Shown here: one piece after another, positions 422 to 18,373 of the stretch
Numbering within the stretch: position 1 is the first letter of the stretch
Layout: every line of letters starts with the position of its first letter
From: an uncultured virus (IMG/VR IMGVR_UViG_2731957961_000002)
Lineage: Duplodnaviria > Heunggongvirae > Uroviricota > Caudoviricetes
Length of the DNA stretch: 20,000 bases
IMG/VR virus record: IMGVR_UViG_2731957961_000002
Reading direction: 5' to 3' (one strand)
Program-made: the position numbers and the translations under genes
The notes under the pieces: generated by a model
The model's input: the letters and a program-made list of their open reading frames with translations, nothing else
The model's database searches: none
What the model was told of the DNA's origin: nothing

Positions 422-765
422 TGCGTGTTCTTGTCTGCGGCAGCCGGAATTATCGCGACCGCAATCACGTGTTTCGCGCGCTCGACATGCGCCACGCATC
501 ATCGCCAATCGCGGTGATCCTGCACGGCGGTGCGACCGGGGCGGACGCGATGGCGGCGGAATGGGCCAGCGAGAACGCCGTGGAAGCGCTCGAATACCTG
601 GCTGACTGGAAGAAGCTCGGGCCACATGCCGGCCCGAAGCGCAACGCCGACATGATCAAGTACGGCCAGCCGGATCTGGTGATTGCATTCCCCGGCAACT
701 CCGGAACAGAGGACATGGTCGACAAGGCCGAGCGCGCCGGCATCGAGGTCGAACGGATTGATTGA
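421..765 (+). CDS. DUF2493 / YspA-related SLOG family protein, 114 aa
   Basis: Motifs MRVLVCGSRNY, HGGATGAD, ADW...AGPKRN, VIAFPG..GT.DM. Translationally coupled to the upstream gene; true start is 421, not 85. Confidence 0.88.
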   Translation: MRVLVCGSRNYRDRNHVFRALDMRHASSPIAVILHGGATGADAMAAEWASENAVEALEYLADWKKLGPHAGPKRNADMIKYGQPDLVIAFPGNSGTEDMVDKAERAGIEVERID

Positions 766-1131: not shown

Positions 1132-1876
1132 ACAGCGTTCCGATCTGCATCGATGTTAGCCACCACCAAGGCGTTATCGACGGCCGACTGTCGCGGCGTC
1201 AGGCGTGCGCGGCATGATCCACAAATGCAGCGAAGGCTCATCCTACACCGATCCCATGCGCGCCGAGAACTGCAGCGCCGCCCTCGCGGCCGGTCTCGGG
1301 ATCTCGACGTATCACTGGCTATCGCCTGGCTCAGATCCGCGCGACCAGATGGAGTTTTACCTGGAGCTGCTTGAGCCTCAGAATGGCGAGAGAGTTGTTG
1401 TCGACTACGAGGAAGATGGATGCCAGCTTTCCGATCTGAAGGCCGCAATCGCTGCGATCCTCGACATCAATGATACGCTCCGCGTAACCGTCTATTCCGG
1501 TCATCTCATCAAGGAACAATTGAGTGGCCGTGACGACTACTTGGCGGAGAATTGTGATCTCTGGTTGGCGCAGTACACGTCAGGCACGCCGACGTGGGAG
1601 ACCGCAACGTGGCCGGAATGGGCATTGTGGCAGTATAGCGAGACCGGCGTTATCCCCGGCATCGACGATGCCTATGTTGATCTCAATAACTTCAATGGCG
1701 ACGAGGAAGCCTTCCTGGCCTGGATCAATCCGGCCGGCGAGGAGCCGACACCGGTACCGCCGCCGATCACACGAGCGGTTACGGTCGACATCGAGGCGCC
1801 ACCCGGCGTCCAGGTGTCGGTCAACGGCACGACGATGTCCTATACACATCGAGCCCTACGAGCGAGTCTTAAATAA
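1128..1876 (+). pseudogene. GH25 muramidase (endolysin), frameshifted near 1182
   Basis: ATG 1128 gives MNSVPICIDVSHHQGVID. One missing base (GAC-[T]GG-CCG) would restore W-PTVAASGVRGMIHKCSEG...YHW...VDYEE...VYSG...LWLAQY...WALWQYS..G...VDLN, all GH25 motifs. Confidence 0.85.
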
Positions 1877-2109: not shown

Positions 2110-2328
2110 TCACCAGTCTCGATCATTCACGCGTTTGCCGATTTTCCAACAACCAGCCATGGACAGGTACTCGGCCTCGAAAAACGCCTTGACGTCGGTA
2201 CCCATCGCATCCTGCGTGGTGTCATCGAGCTGTTGATGCACCAGCCATTTGCGATCCTTGTCGTAGACCAATGCCAGCGCTTCCGGGTCGCTGCTCGCGA
2301 GCGTGGTCTGGACCTTCACGATTTCCAT
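2110..2328 (-). CDS. hypothetical protein, 72 aa (MEIVKVQ...RDW)
   Basis: GAAGG RBS before ATG 2328; EcfG-type promoter directly upstream. Confidence 0.7.
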   Translation of the reverse strand: MEIVKVQTTLASSDPEALALVYDKDRKWLVHQQLDDTTQDAMGTDVKAFFEAEYLSMAGCWKIGKRVNDRDW

Positions 2329-2414: not shown

Positions 2415-2511
2415 TTAAAAAACGGCCCCTGGAGCGCAGGGACCGGTCAGTTGGGGGGAATCTCCATTTTTAGCTTAGGAGCAATATGCCGCAATGGACC
2501 GGCGGCACAGA
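2415..2511 (-). ncRNA. candidate EcfG-dependent sRNA B (~95 nt)
   Basis: Bounded by promoter 2517-2541 and terminator 2417-2445. Contains 5' hairpin TGCCGC/GCGGCA and C-rich tract TTCCCCCCAAC; no credible sense ORF. Confidence 0.55.
2417..2445 (-). terminator. intrinsic terminator
   Basis: Minus strand CGGTCCCTG-CGCTC-CAGGGGCCG-TTTTTT (9-bp stem with one G-U pair). Confidence 0.8.
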
Positions 2512-2516
2512 CCCGC

Positions 2517-2541
2517 AACCCATCGAAGAGGGCATCGTTCC
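2517..2541 (-). promoter_or_regulatory. EcfG-type promoter GGAAC-N16-GGTT
   Basis: Motif lies immediately downstream of terminator 2555-2588. Confidence 0.6.
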
Positions 2542-2552
2542 TAAGGCTCCAA

Positions 2553-2637
2553 CGAAAAAAAACGGCCCCCACGGGGATCGGGGGCCGTCGGTTCACAGAG
2601 TTTGCATGAGTGTGGTGCCGCTTCCACACGACACAGA
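2553..2637 (-). ncRNA. candidate EcfG-dependent sRNA A (~85 nt), coinciding with the csbD 3' region
   Basis: Bounded by perfect promoter 2643-2667 and terminator 2555-2588; 5' hairpin; no ORF. Confidence 0.55.
2555..2588 (-). terminator. intrinsic terminator
   Basis: Minus strand ACGGCCCCC-GATCCCCGT-GGGGGCCGT followed by a T-run. Confidence 0.88.
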
Positions 2638-2642
2638 CGACC

Positions 2643-2667
2643 AACGTGTTCAGGGCCGGATCGTTCC
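2643..2667 (-). promoter_or_regulatory. EcfG/sigmaT promoter GGAAC-N16-CGTT
   Basis: Perfect consensus beginning 8 nt downstream of the csbD stop codon. Confidence 0.7.
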
Positions 2668-2675
2668 TAGCGAAA

Positions 2676-2879
2676 TCACCAGCCTTGCCTGCCGTACCAG
2701 TCGTTGATTTCCTTTTGCGCTCGGTCCTTGGCATAGCCGTAGCGCTCCTGCAGACGCCCCTCAAGCTGTTCACGCTTACCGTCGATGACATCAAGGTCGT
2801 CGTCGGTTAGCTTGCCCCACTGCTCCTTGACCTTGCCTTTCATCTGCTTCCAGTTACCTTCGACGCGGTTCCAGTCCAT
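2676..2879 (-). CDS. csbD: CsbD/YjbJ family general stress protein, 67 aa
   Basis: MDWNRVEGNWKQMKGKVKEQWGKLTDDDLDVIDGKREQLEGRLQERYG signature; GGAGG RBS. Confidence 0.95.
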   Translation of the reverse strand: MDWNRVEGNWKQMKGKVKEQWGKLTDDDLDVIDGKREQLEGRLQERYGYAKDRAQKEINDWYGRQGW

Positions 2880-2909
2880 GATGAAGCCTCCAATTTTGAT
2901 ATTGGATTT

Positions 2910-2935
2910 AACGTCTTGAACGGGGCGCGCGTTCC
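2910..2935 (-). promoter_or_regulatory. EcfG/sigmaT promoter GGAAC-N17-CGTT for csbD
   Basis: Consensus motif 30 nt upstream of the ATG; csbD genes are typical general-stress-response targets. Confidence 0.8.
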
Positions 2936-2982
2936 TCGACGACACCCAAGCCGCTAGAGGTGGTCGGTCGTAGGTCAAAGCT

Positions 2983-3174
2983 CTAACTAAGATCGGGCTT
3001 AAAGCCCGCAGGCATTGCGGGGACGTCGTCCGGATCGGTGGCATTGACCTTGTTGCAGGCGGGGCACGGCGCGCCAGCGCCGCCACAACCGCAGGCCCGT
3101 TCCCCCAAGAACGGCCGATCAAGATGGTTCTCGCAAACCCACCGCGTGTTGTCGCATCTGGGGCAGTACTTCAC
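2983..3174 (-). CDS. small Cys-rich putative Zn-binding protein, 63 aa
   Basis: CPRC...WVCENH.DRP...ACGCGGAG.PCPAC; GGAGGA RBS before GTG 3174. Confidence 0.75.
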   Translation of the reverse strand: MKYCPRCDNTRWVCENHLDRPFLGERACGCGGAGAPCPACNKVNATDPDDVPAMPAGFKPDLS

Positions 3175-3196
3175 GATATGCGTCCTCCAGGAAACC

Positions 3197-3221
3197 AATG
3201 TCGGAGGATTCATTGTGTTCC
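3197..3221 (-). promoter_or_regulatory. EcfG-type promoter GGAAC-N16-CATT
   Basis: Ends ~22 nt upstream of GTG 3174. Confidence 0.6.
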
Positions 3222-3413
3222 GGGGTCTTGCTGCCGATCTAGCGCTGCTTTGCCCAGCCACTCAGCACAACGGTCAGCTAGCTTCTCGTATTCCTCGGCG
3301 ACCCGAAGCATTCGACGCGATTCGCGGGGGTCGTAGCGCAATTGCTTCGCCTTCATGCGGGTCGCCTTTGCGCGATCTCGCCAGTACTTCGGTTGTTTGA
3401 TCGGGTCATCCAT
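3210..3413 (-). CDS. small helical-hairpin hypothetical protein, 67 aa
   Basis: YWRDRA..TR..A...D...RRML.VAEEYEKLA pattern common in rhizobial small proteins. Confidence 0.7.
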   Translation of the reverse strand: MDDPIKQPKYWRDRAKATRMKAKQLRYDPRESRRMLRVAEEYEKLADRCAEWLGKAALDRQQDPGTQ

Positions 3414-3600
3414 GCAGCAAGTACTGCAACTTGCGAACCCATCGCTCCCAAACATTTGTGAAGCGGTCGGGAAAAATATGCAAGTTGGCGTTCCGAAAAC
3501 CGGTAGGCAGCCGTATAATACCGCTGTACGGCAATATGTGTTTTAGTTGCTATAGACGGTTGTAGTCGGGAACTTGTGGCAAACAAGCCAATTACGAAGG

Positions 3601-3679
3601 NNNNNNNNNNNNNNNNNNNNNNNNNNNNNNNNNNNNNNNNNNNNNNNNNNNNNNNNNNNNNNNNNNNNNNNNNNNNNNN
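3601..3679. other. assembly gap (N run)
   Basis: 79 consecutive Ns. Confidence 1.
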
Positions 3680-3779
3680 ATTTTTCTCACCTTGAATTTG
3701 ATGCAGGTCAATGCAGAAAGCCACGCTATGATCTCAATAGATCTCCCGTCCTACAGAGAGAAAGCGGAGGTCTATACGG

Positions 3780-3974
3780 GTGGATCATTTCGCCAACGCA
3801 AACGAACTTAGAAAACGAGCGGAAGAATTTCGACGAACGGCAGAAACCATCACCGAGCACCACACCAGAGCCAGCTTCCTGGAATTGGCGCGCTCCTATG
3901 ATGCGTTAGCTTACGCGGAGGAGGCGGCGGGAAAGGCCTTAGACCTGGCACGACGCCGGAGCCAAGAGAACTAG
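3780..3974 (+). CDS. small helical-hairpin hypothetical protein, 64 aa (same pattern as 3210-3413)
   Basis: GGAGG RBS; LRKRAEEFRR.AE......R..FLELARSYDALA. Confidence 0.7.
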   Translation: MDHFANANELRKRAEEFRRTAETITEHHTRASFLELARSYDALAYAEEAAGKALDLARRRSQEN

Positions 3975-10166: not shown

Positions 10167-10727
10167 TCAGGCCGTCGCGGTCGCCCGGTCGGCAAGCCGG
10201 GAAATGGTGGAATGAGCTACATTGTAGGAGCGGGCGATCACGCGGGTCGCTTCGCCCGCCGCCAGTCGCGCCAATGCTTCGCGCTGCTGATGGGCCGACA
10301 GTTTCGAGCTGCGACCGAGATGCCGGCCTTCGGCCTTGGCCCGCGCCCGGCCGTCGCTGGTACGCTGCAAAATCAGCGACCGCTCAAATTCGGCGATGCC
10401 GGCGAGCACCGTCATCATCAGCCGGCCGTGCGGCGTCGTGGTATCGGCCCAGCTGTCGCCCAGCGACTTGAAGCCGGCTTCGGCCTTGCCGATCTGGTCG
10501 ACGATCCGCAGCAGGTCCAGAGTGCTTCTAGCCAGACGGTCCAGTTTGGCCACCACGACGACGTCGCCGGGCCGCAGCTTGGCCAGCAGTCGCTCCAGCT
10601 CACGGCGCTGCTTCACGCCGGAAACCTTCTCGCTGTAAAGCTTGTCGACGCCGAAGGCGTTCAGCGCCTGCTCCTGCGTGGCCAGCGTCTGGCCCGTGGT
10701 GGAAACGCGCGCATATCCATAGATCAT
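10167..10727 (-). CDS. serine recombinase (resolvase/invertase), 186 aa
   Basis: YGYARVST, EKVSG, GDVVVVAKLDRLARS, DTTTPHGRLM, AEFERSLI..RT..GR, C-terminal HTH. Confidence 0.97.
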   Translation of the reverse strand: MIYGYARVSTTGQTLATQEQALNAFGVDKLYSEKVSGVKQRRELERLLAKLRPGDVVVVAKLDRLARSTLDLLRIVDQIGKAEAGFKSLGDSWADTTTPHGRLMMTVLAGIAEFERSLILQRTSDGRARAKAEGRHLGRSSKLSAHQQREALARLAAGEATRVIARSYNVAHSTISRLADRATATA

Positions 10728-17345: not shown

Positions 17346-18373
17346 ATGAACAAGCTGGACCGAAGGACGCGCGCCCAAATCCTGCNACCTCCTTTGCGAG
17401 GGCCAATCGATCCGCGCCGTTACCCGCCTGACCGGATGNCAGCAAGAACACCGTTGCGAAGTTGCTGGTTGAGGCTGGGCACGCCTGCGCCGCCTATCAG
17501 GACAAGGCGCTTCGGAACCTGCCGTGCAAGCGCGTCCAGATGGATGAAATCTGGAGCTTCGTTTACGCCAAGGCCGCCAACGTAGAGAAGGCTAAGGCCG
17601 CTCCCGCGAGCGCTGGGGACGTTTGGACGTGGACAGCCATCTGCGCCGACACCAAGCTAATTGTTAGCTGGTTGCTCGGCTCTCGCGATCTGGATGCCGC
17701 TCTGGCGTTCACTGGCGATCTGAGAAGCCGCTTAGCAAGCCGCGCCCAGCTCACCAGCGACGGTCACGGCTCGTACCTAAGTGCCGTGGACGCTACATTC
17801 GGTGATGATGTTGATTACGCCATGCTGGTGAAGCTGTACGGCGCAGACCCTCAGGCCGAAACACGCTACAGCCCGGCAAAGTGCATCGGGGCACGCAAAG
17901 AGCCTAAAATCGGCTCTCCCGACAAGAAGCACATCAGCACTTCCTATGTTGAGCGTAGCAACCTTACCATGCGGATGCACATGCGCCGCTTTACCCGGCT
18001 CACCAATGCATTCTCAAAGAAGGTCGAGAACCACGCCGCAGCGATTGCGCTCCACACGTTCTACTACAACTTCGTCCGTATCCATCAGACGCTCAAGGTG
18101 ACGCCCGCAATGGCTGCGGGCGTCACGGATAAGCTTTGGGAGATGGATGATTTGGTTGCGATGCTGGAGCAGTGGGAGCTATCGAACTTCAAGCCGGAAT
18201 ATCAATTCGTGGTGCGTCAATACGCGATTGGTAAGGGCCATTCGGTGAGCGTTCTGTGGCGCGGCGGTGAAGTGGACAGCATCTATGGTTTTGCAAGCGA
18301 ATACGACGCCTTGCAGTGGATCAAGGACAAGTCGCAAGCTTGGCTGATAGATACCAAAACGGCCCGATCATGA
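17346..18373 (+). CDS. IS1-family DDE transposase, ~341 aa
   Basis: Removing the two Ns (17386, 17439) gives one ORF: HTH LCEGQSIRAVTRLTGCSKNTV, MDEIWSFV, LTSDG...Y, STSYVER.NLTMR...RRFTRLTNAFSKK.ENH, YNF.R.H, TPAMAAG. Confidence 0.93.

Follow-up and report, generated by a model that had tools for sequence, protein, structure and literature searches.

Tandem candidate small RNA genes with EcfG-type promoter motifs on a mobile islet of Bradyrhizobium

Introduction

Of the small RNAs (sRNAs) under the control of the stress sigma factor EcfG, only GsrN of Caulobacter has been characterised in detail. In Caulobacter crescentus, GsrN has a sigma-T/EcfG-type promoter, a 5' hairpin, a terminator and an exposed C-rich tract that pairs with G-rich sites in mRNAs, and through it the general stress response gains a post-transcriptional level of control (PMC5869019). 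GsrN-like RNAs have been predicted in other Alphaproteobacteria, including the agriculturally important nitrogen-fixing genus Bradyrhizobium, whose one published candidate was predicted by position alone (PMC5869019). Here, we describe two consecutive units, A and B, that follow the stress gene csbD in a 20,000-nucleotide stretch of DNA (the window) recorded as an uncultured Caudoviricetes virus (IMG/VR IMGVR_UViG_2731957961_000002). The window lies on contig C81 of a Bradyrhizobium genome of 8.8 Mb (135 contigs, 62.5% G+C). An earlier note, made from the letters of the window, had proposed that the units form an unannotated, duplicated sRNA cassette under the control of EcfG.

Sibling or tandem sets of sRNAs have precedents in CcsR1-4 of Rhodobacter, located downstream of a small stress open reading frame (ORF), and in AbcR1/2. 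Phage morons and prophage-borne sRNAs are self-contained promoter-gene-terminator units that sit between mobile-element genes and are transcribed by the host. In Bradyrhizobium USDA 110, the genus-specific sRNAs BjsR5, 6, 7 and 10 occur in two to four imperfect copies, with predicted promoters described as RpoD, RpoN or none (PMC5082802).

We consider it probable that A and B are independent sRNA genes with EcfG-type promoters, two siblings that have one scaffold in common, differ in their seeds and reside on a mobile stress islet. Judged by sequence comparison, the family they represent is most probably a previously undescribed, Bradyrhizobium-specific and accessory one, adding a member to a known class of sRNAs; no description of it was found in the literature on EcfG/PhyR/csbD small RNAs and on Bradyrhizobium small RNAs.

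Results

Both units share one build: TAGGAACGAT-N14-GTTG-N5-CTGTG(T/C)CG leads into a hairpin, behind which lie a linker that varies and an intrinsic terminator. The order on the minus strand is csbD (2882-2676), unit A (2669-2553) and unit B (2543-2417), with 126 nt between the start of A and the start of B. Their parts, with the basis of each assignment, are the following.

2642-2669, minus strand: unit A promoter, with TAGGAACGAT as the -35 region (2669-2660), a 13-nt spacer and CGTTG as the -10 region (2646-2642); pattern match and column conservation
2615-2638, minus strand: unit A predicted 5' end and 5' hairpin, with GTCTGTGTCG (2638-2629), an 8-nt loop and CGGCAC (2620-2615), GUGUCG pairing with CGGCAC; folding and family model
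2590-2614, minus strand: unit A linker of about 25 nt, a putative single-stranded seed (..CAUGCAAACUCUGUGAACC; includes CUCUGUGAAC); folding
2553-2589, minus strand: unit A intrinsic terminator, an 11-bp stem (2589-2561) and then a T run; terminator scan
2516-2543, minus strand: unit B promoter, with TAGGAACGAT (2543-2534), a 13-nt spacer and GGTTG (2520-2516); pattern match and column conservation
2485-2512, minus strand: unit B predicted 5' end and 5' hairpin, with GTCTGTGCCG (2512-2503) and GCGGCA (2492-2487), arms UGUGCCGC and GCGGCAUA and a 9-nt loop; folding and family model
2446-2484, minus strand: unit B linker, with a small hairpin (CUCC 2481-2478, GGAG 2465-2462), an unpaired tract and then UGA; folding
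2417-2445, minus strand: unit B intrinsic terminator, a 9-bp stem (2445-2423) and then T6; terminator scan

The spacing is the same in both units (GGAAC-N16-SGTT, then N-5 to CTGTG), and their alignment has a mean column identity of 72%, concentrated in the promoter, hairpin and terminator blocks. The strings and the identical spacing that the earlier note had read on the minus strand were confirmed in the sequence, and the terminator that it placed at the end of each unit was called by the terminator scan in both. It had also described G-U wobbles in the stem of A and G-C pairs in that of B. The wobble in A is present, but each 5' stem has one G.U pair, formed in A by the U of GUGUCG against CGGCAC and in B by a G against the U of CGGCAU.

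The paired units are a real feature, more than chance. The motif GGAAC-N16/17-SGTT has three sites in the window, all on the minus strand within 2517-2935, where shuffles expect 0.58, and only 1 of 200 shuffles attains three. The terminator scan of the window gave four sites against 1.5 expected, both unit terminators among them. In the 8.8-Mb genome, the full 36-nt signature occurs only at the two window sites, with none in the reversed control, and a regular-expression scan agrees. With a relaxed -10 box (GGAAC-N16/17-BRTT), the window holds eight matches against 1.67 expected, all eight on the minus strand.

None of the ORFs over the units has a protein family or shows its own coding signature. 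The claim that neither unit has a sense ORF holds to that extent, although mechanical ORFs do overlap them, such as 2447-2794 (minus strand), which is out of frame over csbD. By our own reading of the sequences, the related L051 unit does not preserve the sole short ATG ORF (MEIPPN, unit B; L numbers denote loci collected in this study). Promoter geometry would place the 5' end of unit A near 2638-2637. The 5' hairpin of unit B is found in the minimum-energy and centroid folds alike; for unit A, an alternative 5' fold, GUGUGG/CCACAC, is near-isoenergetic (-32.6 vs -32.4 kcal/mol). The linker of A is largely unpaired in the minimum-energy fold, and a family-wide folding run pairs CACA with UGUG inside it. 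Neither 5' loop (UGUGGAAG in A, CGGUCCAUU in B) is a C-tract; the C6 tract of B sits in the linker, whose unpaired tract (2460-2450) reads UUCCCCCCAAC in RNA and TTCCCCCCAAC in DNA.

The same design recurs in other Bradyrhizobium genomes, which bears out the idea of a duplicated cassette with a shared scaffold and different middles. BLAST of csbD plus the units against 61 relatives matched the csbD part alone. With the units alone, short pieces were matched in 10 of 401 genomes of the genus, and inspection of these places shows the same design, while BLAST of the unit DNA gave no match in 50,697 phage records or 72,556 plasmids. The strict pattern GGAAC-N17-GTTG-N5-CTGTGYCG-N3-14-CGGCA was searched in three collections, with the following outcome.

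About 185,000 species genomes: nine loci, comprising five intergenic units with terminators and four chance matches in coding sequence
Metagenome contigs: six loci, comprising two real units and four chance matches in coding sequence
Viral contigs: no loci, hence no real units and no chance matches

All five real units of the species genomes come from Bradyrhizobium or from metagenome-assembled genomes assigned to the same genus. Relaxed to two mismatches, the pattern matched 30 of the 401 genus genomes, against 7 matches for the reversed control.

A covariance model of the promoter and 5' hairpin (R1), made from 10 units, found 24 places at E <= 1e-4 in the collected loci and, in the genome of the window, the two window units only. 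Among 151 genus genomes at least 95% complete, it matched nine at E <= 1e-3, about six of which are credible on inspection (about 4%). R1 and inspection together gave at least 23 credible units, all of them in accessory DNA and confined to Bradyrhizobium genomes plus two metagenome contigs; arrays of two or three are frequent (three in L055 and in L058, two in L097). In the collections searched, the unit family is Bradyrhizobium-restricted, rare and patchy. The R1 matches in G100 and G266, with a hairpin and no T run, were excluded from the 23, and the sp190_a unit of L058 stands outside the full-length set because its terminator boundary was mis-set. We rejected the R1 matches in G182 and G187 (two) and the second one in G191, which have no convincing terminator and three of which share one conserved sequence read as coding. 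A search of 146 genomes from other genera in the family gave three weak matches (26-34 bits), without -10 box and terminator, which we likewise rejected.

The units of L051 and L052 were first found by terminator likeness alone, and they carry the canonical hairpin, and a terminator nearly identical to that of B occurs in units of L055, L051 and L052. L043 has one unit behind a remnant of the csbD 3' end. A decayed third unit exists in the genome of the window itself, outside the window (C81, about 55750-55840, plus strand; locus L004, about 1390-1560), in which the -35 region is replaced (GCCAGCGAT) and the hairpin shortened (GUGC..GCAC), and the CUCCAA linker and the terminator are kept.

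Several other observations were made at these loci. In L058 (1428-2610, plus strand), a DUF892 (YciE/YciF-like) gene at 1601-2098 stands among the three units and has a separate GGAAC-N16-GGTT site at 1550. The promoter motif alone revealed a further unit-like gene at about 776 of L055 (minus strand), whose GGAAC-N17-CGTT is accompanied by a longer hairpin (GUGUGCCGACC..GGUUGGCAC) and by a terminator. A G+C-rich stretch of about 85 nt is conserved after the unit arrays of three genomes (L042, about 1715-1800, plus strand; L043, about 1400-1320, minus strand; L045, post-terminator); it is preceded by the degenerate promoter-like GAGAACGATCCCGCTCAGCATCTGTTGG and is absent from the window.

The Rfam search suggested in the earlier note gave no family at gathering score anywhere in the window and none over the units of 15 related loci, where the only two matches are to group II introns and lie outside the units. 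These intron pieces (RF00029, RF02001) are close to units, at 1333-1417 of L051 (minus strand), about 80 nt past a unit's terminator, and at 4925-5055 of L058 (minus strand). Sub-threshold Rfam matches (suhB at 17.5 bits, isrD, Atu_C8, ctRNA and P10; E 0.58-9) were set aside as chance or generic terminator likeness.

The promoters of unit A (GGAAC-N16-CGTT) and unit B (GGAAC-N16-GGTT) both fit the EcfG-type consensus, as had been proposed. This consensus is given as GAAC-N16,17-C/GGTT in one study (PMC4814048) and as GGAAC-N16-CGTT with a flexible -10 in another, in which CATT and TGTT boxes were transcribed by EcfG in vitro (PMC7083833). The motif also occurs before csbD, which is a direct EcfG target in Sphingopyxis (PMC7083833), and we assume from that report the same dependence in Bradyrhizobium itself.

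2676-2882, minus strand: csbD, encoding a 68-aa general stress protein (Pfam CsbD, E 1.9e-23; phrog_4133)
2910-2935, minus strand: EcfG-type promoter motif of csbD, GGAAC-N17-CGTT; pattern match

In relatives, 23 of 29 distinct csbD upstream regions have GGAACG(A/T)-N-(C/G)GTT(G) 24-46 nt ahead of the start, and the extended motif of the units is the same as this csbD promoter motif. Besides the units themselves, 14 GGAAC-N16/17-SGTT sites are present in the 17 loci (58 kb) that bear units, compared with 1.8 in shuffles (maximum 5). Several of these sites precede protein genes, among them csbD in L105 and a DUF892 gene that stands between two L058 units. Given the match to the csbD motif and the excess of further sites, the units are part of small gene islets with promoters of the stress type. 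EcfG as the sigma factor of the units is supported by these comparisons, not proven.

The position of the units behind csbD raises the question of how far they belong to neighbouring transcripts. As csbD has no terminator of its own ahead of unit A, its mRNA may extend through the unit, which would then also be produced as the 3' end of that message. If unit A were purely the 3' untranslated region (UTR) and terminator of csbD, and unit B a leader or attenuator for a 72-aa ORF (2328-2110), both would be cis parts of neighbouring mRNAs. The csbD stop (TGA, 2678-2676) is only 6 nt before the TAGGAAC of unit A, the second csbD copy of the genome (contig C125) has its own terminator directly after the stop, the 72-aa ORF begins on the same strand about 90 nt past terminator B, and the arrangement of csbD plus a unit recurs in L110 at 86% identity. 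Nevertheless, we find this explanation unlikely: each unit has a complete promoter motif, and L042/L055, which has no csbD, carries three tandem units directly behind the small Cys-rich gene that the window also has; this speaks for independence from csbD. Moreover, the first unit of a tandem array cannot be a gene's leader; nor is the L059 unit one, since the next family-matched gene downstream (an ABC substrate-binding protein, 2943-3944) is on the opposite strand. Finally, past terminator B there is a separate promoter-like site for the 72-aa ORF.

This ORF (2110-2328, minus strand) has no known family, and a paralogue with 58% identity is found at C81:38924-39136. The site about 30 nt ahead of it, GGAAC-N16-CATT at 2381-2357 (minus strand), is a possible fourth stress-type promoter in the row; the nepR upstream region of the same genome likewise has GGAAC-N16-CATT.

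In an alignment of 24 units, information peaks at AGGAACGAT, GTTG, GTGCCG and CGGCAC and is low in the spacer, the 4-11-nt loop and the post-hairpin part. A G+C-rich hairpin, in most cases with a T run, lies about 10-40 nt downstream of all 24 matches, although it was not part of the search pattern, and in an alignment of 23 terminators, 7 of 11 pairs have compensatory changes. The 5' hairpin is present in the minimum-energy fold of 20 of the 23 full-length units. Within the variable linkers, AACUGA or AACUCA stands directly 5' of the terminator in many units, and YCCAA is found in 14 of 23 by our own count. Six close relatives share CUCCAAA(U)GAACU, unit B and L051 share UUCCCCCCAA(A)CUGA, and the UUCCCCCCAAACUGA tract of unit B recurs in L051. 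Some relatives (L062, L092) have UCCCCC in the 5' loop.

A number of results weigh against the reading of A and B as independent sRNA genes of the stress response. The 24 public runs listed each contained at most 8% of the sampled words, and four runs examined as contigs (two RNA, two DNA) had csbD-like sequence over 2663-3169 only and nothing over 2300-2640. When the seeds were compared with 6,984 heuristic start regions by RNAduplex, the counts did not depart from those of the 12 shuffles made for each seed. The fold z-scores of the two units are modest (-1.9 and -2.1), and some family members have a weak T run or none after the hairpin. In the 5' hairpin of the 24 units, 94% of cells are paired, with G.U as the sole variants, but 245 of 500 shuffles do as well and there is no covariation beyond chance. 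The invariance of its arms is in part an effect of ascertainment, since the patterns or the model that retrieved most members contain the arms. In addition, GGAAC-N16-GTT-like motifs are common to several extracytoplasmic function (ECF) sigma factor groups.

An RNA structure of the 5' hairpin is compatible with these data and unproven. The comparison with homologues that the earlier note had envisaged shows conserved promoter and hairpin columns and compensatory changes in the terminators, and no covariation of the 5' hairpin beyond chance; comparative evidence backs the structural part of its reading, which to this extent is partly supported.

Two further results bear on transcripts and targets. 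One RNA-library contig extends 64 nt past the csbD stop into the unit-like promoter string of a relative, which indicates neither a start nor independent transcription. Searches of the linkers against the genome with blastn-short returned 11-13-nt matches only, at chance level. As a separate observation, a 17-nt same-sense match of the unit B linker lies in a 5' UTR at C125:236790-236830 (minus strand), reading UUUUCCCCCCAAAUGACCGGGCGUCCUGGGGGGGAGCAUCAUG, and the C6 tract in that 5' UTR could sequester a G-rich ribosome-binding site.

The sparse variation of the 5' hairpin admits another view, in which the units are transcribed as sRNAs whose main function resides in the hairpin, as a site of protein binding or titration or as a processing or stability module, and not in pairing of the linker. 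Its core, GUGCCG/CGGCAC, changes only to G.U in the 24 units around a loop of 4-11 nt, whereas the terminators covary freely, and the target scans are without signal. Part of this invariance, however, comes from the search pattern. The YCCAA or C-rich motif in 14 of 23 linkers is typical of anti-Shine-Dalgarno seeds, and no protein gene is common to all units, the Cys-rich and 81-aa genes occurring with the closest relatives only. We therefore hold a function centred on the hairpin to be improbable.

The breadth of the promoter motif among ECF groups leaves some room for recognition by another ECF sigma factor in place of EcfG, be it a host paralogue or a factor supplied by a mobile element, which would put the RNAs outside the general stress response. 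The -10 box of B and of many relatives is indeed GGTT or TGTT, not CGTT. Such a factor seems very unlikely, given that the extended motif GGAACGA...(C/G)GTTG is the one found before csbD in 23 of 29 relatives and that no sigma-factor gene was among the window proteins scanned. Furthermore, the published variation of the EcfG -10 box includes GGTT, TGTT and CATT, and in another genus csbD is directly controlled by EcfG (PMC4814048, PMC7083833).

Lastly, the units might be non-transcribed repeat DNA, either REP-like palindromes or a mobile-element scar or recombination site, with a fortuitous likeness to promoters. The DNA around them is accessory and rich in repeats, group II intron pieces are close by, and the hairpin arms are kept at the DNA level without covariation. 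REP elements are also abundant in Bradyrhizobium, where the palindromic Br-REP1/2 are described in 3' UTRs at tens to hundreds of copies per genome (PMC5082802). This explanation is highly improbable in view of the -35 and -10 boxes, which keep their exact N16 spacing while the spacer diverges, and of an order and orientation that are always promoter, hairpin, terminator. Two intact units (plus one decayed) in 8.8 Mb are far under REP copy number, the consensus sequences printed for Br-REP1 and Br-REP2 are absent from the units when compared by eye (PMC5082802), and the variable loop length speaks against a duplex operator.

The window is accessory, mobile DNA, in agreement with the earlier note, as the endolysin, resolvase and IS1-like transposase genes around the units indicate. 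Protein-family searches identified the following genes.

427-765, plus strand: SLOG/YspA-type protein gene
1205-1876, plus strand: GH25 endolysin gene
10167-10727: serine recombinase (resolvase) gene
17462-18373: IS1-like transposase gene

Cro/C1-type regulators and an AraC-type regulator are also encoded in the window. Two small genes of no known family, at 2983-3261 and 3210-3455 (both minus strand), lie upstream of csbD, one of them Cys-rich (CxxC..CxC..CxxC). The Cys-rich gene and the 81-aa gene travel with the closest unit relatives in four genomes (L055, L043, L052, L105 and L061) and not with distant units. Positions 3601-3679, 17386 and 17439 of the window are N (masked or unresolved).

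Discussion

We infer transcription, EcfG dependence, the 5' ends, base-pairing of the linkers and any role of Hfq from the arrangement of the units, which suggests the following mechanism. Each unit would be a self-contained gene, giving an RNA of about 85 nt (A) or 95 nt (B), with the stress sigma factor starting transcription a few bases ahead of the hairpin. Under stress, the host sigma factor would turn on csbD and both RNAs together. The sequence-conserved 5' hairpin (GUGCCG/CGGCAC) would most likely guard the 5' end or stabilise the RNA, and it may be a handle for a partner. Behind it would be exposed a fast-evolving linker, often with a C/U-rich YCCAA (CUCCAAA, UUCCCCCCAA) and then the A/U-rich AACUGA, and the linkers would pair with different mRNAs at G-rich or Shine-Dalgarno-like sites. 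Together with the terminator and its U tail, the A/U-rich stretch would form a typical chaperone-binding 3' module. Since the scaffold is common to A and B and the linker is not, the two siblings would act on different targets, and the accessory, mobile islet that carries them would thereby extend the reach of the stress response.

A bolder proposal goes beyond sibling sRNA genes. The cassette could be a mobile plug-in kit made of a fixed stress promoter, a sequence-specific 5' hairpin as the handle for a dedicated partner (a protein or nuclease), a fixed terminator and a seed that is exchanged or rewritten. Prophages and islets would then use cassette arrays, together with small stress genes under the same promoter, to wire new targets into the host stress response. 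This idea fits the case of L110, in which homology over csbD and the promoter and 5' hairpin of unit A ends exactly at the hairpin end (window 2615), the linker and terminator being different, and it also fits siblings that are alike at their ends and not in their middles. We regard it as rather unlikely.

If A and B are independent EcfG-type sRNA genes, the post-transcriptional arm of the stress response would vary between strains and be horizontally transferable, and the family would offer a compact natural set of variants with the same scaffold and different seeds. Part of the unannotated intergenic DNA of mobile islets would also be explained. In kind, the finding is an ordinary one, one more sRNA family, drawn from sequence comparison.

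Among the known RNAs of the genus, the BjsR sRNAs resemble the units in being genus-specific, with two to four imperfect copies, and the Br-REP elements in being palindromic. The promoters predicted for the former differ from those of the units, and 12 of the 28 supplementary files of that study, searched for unit strings, gave no match, so that a unit may still correspond to one of the BjsR RNAs; the printed REP consensus is unlike the unit hairpins (PMC5082802). The 3' two-thirds of unit B are similar to MmgR/SuhB (RF00519) in having a small hairpin, a U/C-rich strand (AUUCCCCCCAACUGA, against the consensus UUUCCUCCCUAGAC) and a terminator. However, unit B scores 17.5 bits against a gathering score of 41 (E 0.58) and has an extra 5' hairpin and an ECF-type promoter. 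The suhB gene of Sphingopyxis is reported to be under a LysR-type regulator, with a regulon largely separate from the stress regulon (bioRxiv 10.64898/2025.12.09.693200).

GsrN would be the closest functional analogue of the units and is not put forward as a homologue. The link that the earlier note drew to it stands as a likeness of design only, with the promoter type, the 5' hairpin and the terminator in common; C-rich tracts also occur in unit B, L051 and some 5' loops (L062, L092). In contrast to GsrN, the units are not beside ecfG-nepR-phyR, the position by which GsrN-like genes were predicted outside Caulobacteraceae (PMC5869019): the stress locus of the genome (C60:113037-114892) has no unit-like RNA, and the window is on C81. 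Moreover, A and B have no exposed C-rich loop in the 5' hairpin, the C-rich tract of B being in the linker, and the units are multi-copy, tandem, accessory and patchy, with credible members in about 4% of the genus genomes.

With the CcsR and AbcR sets, the units share a head-to-tail order, a common promoter type and terminator, C/U-rich anti-Shine-Dalgarno motifs and an adjoining small stress gene. They differ in that each unit has a promoter motif of its own, in place of co-transcription and processing, and in that the sibling middles diverge far more; no Rfam family of those RNAs was matched. Compared with phage morons, which likewise stand as complete units between mobile-element genes, the predicted cargo here would be non-coding RNAs wired to the stress sigma factor of the host.

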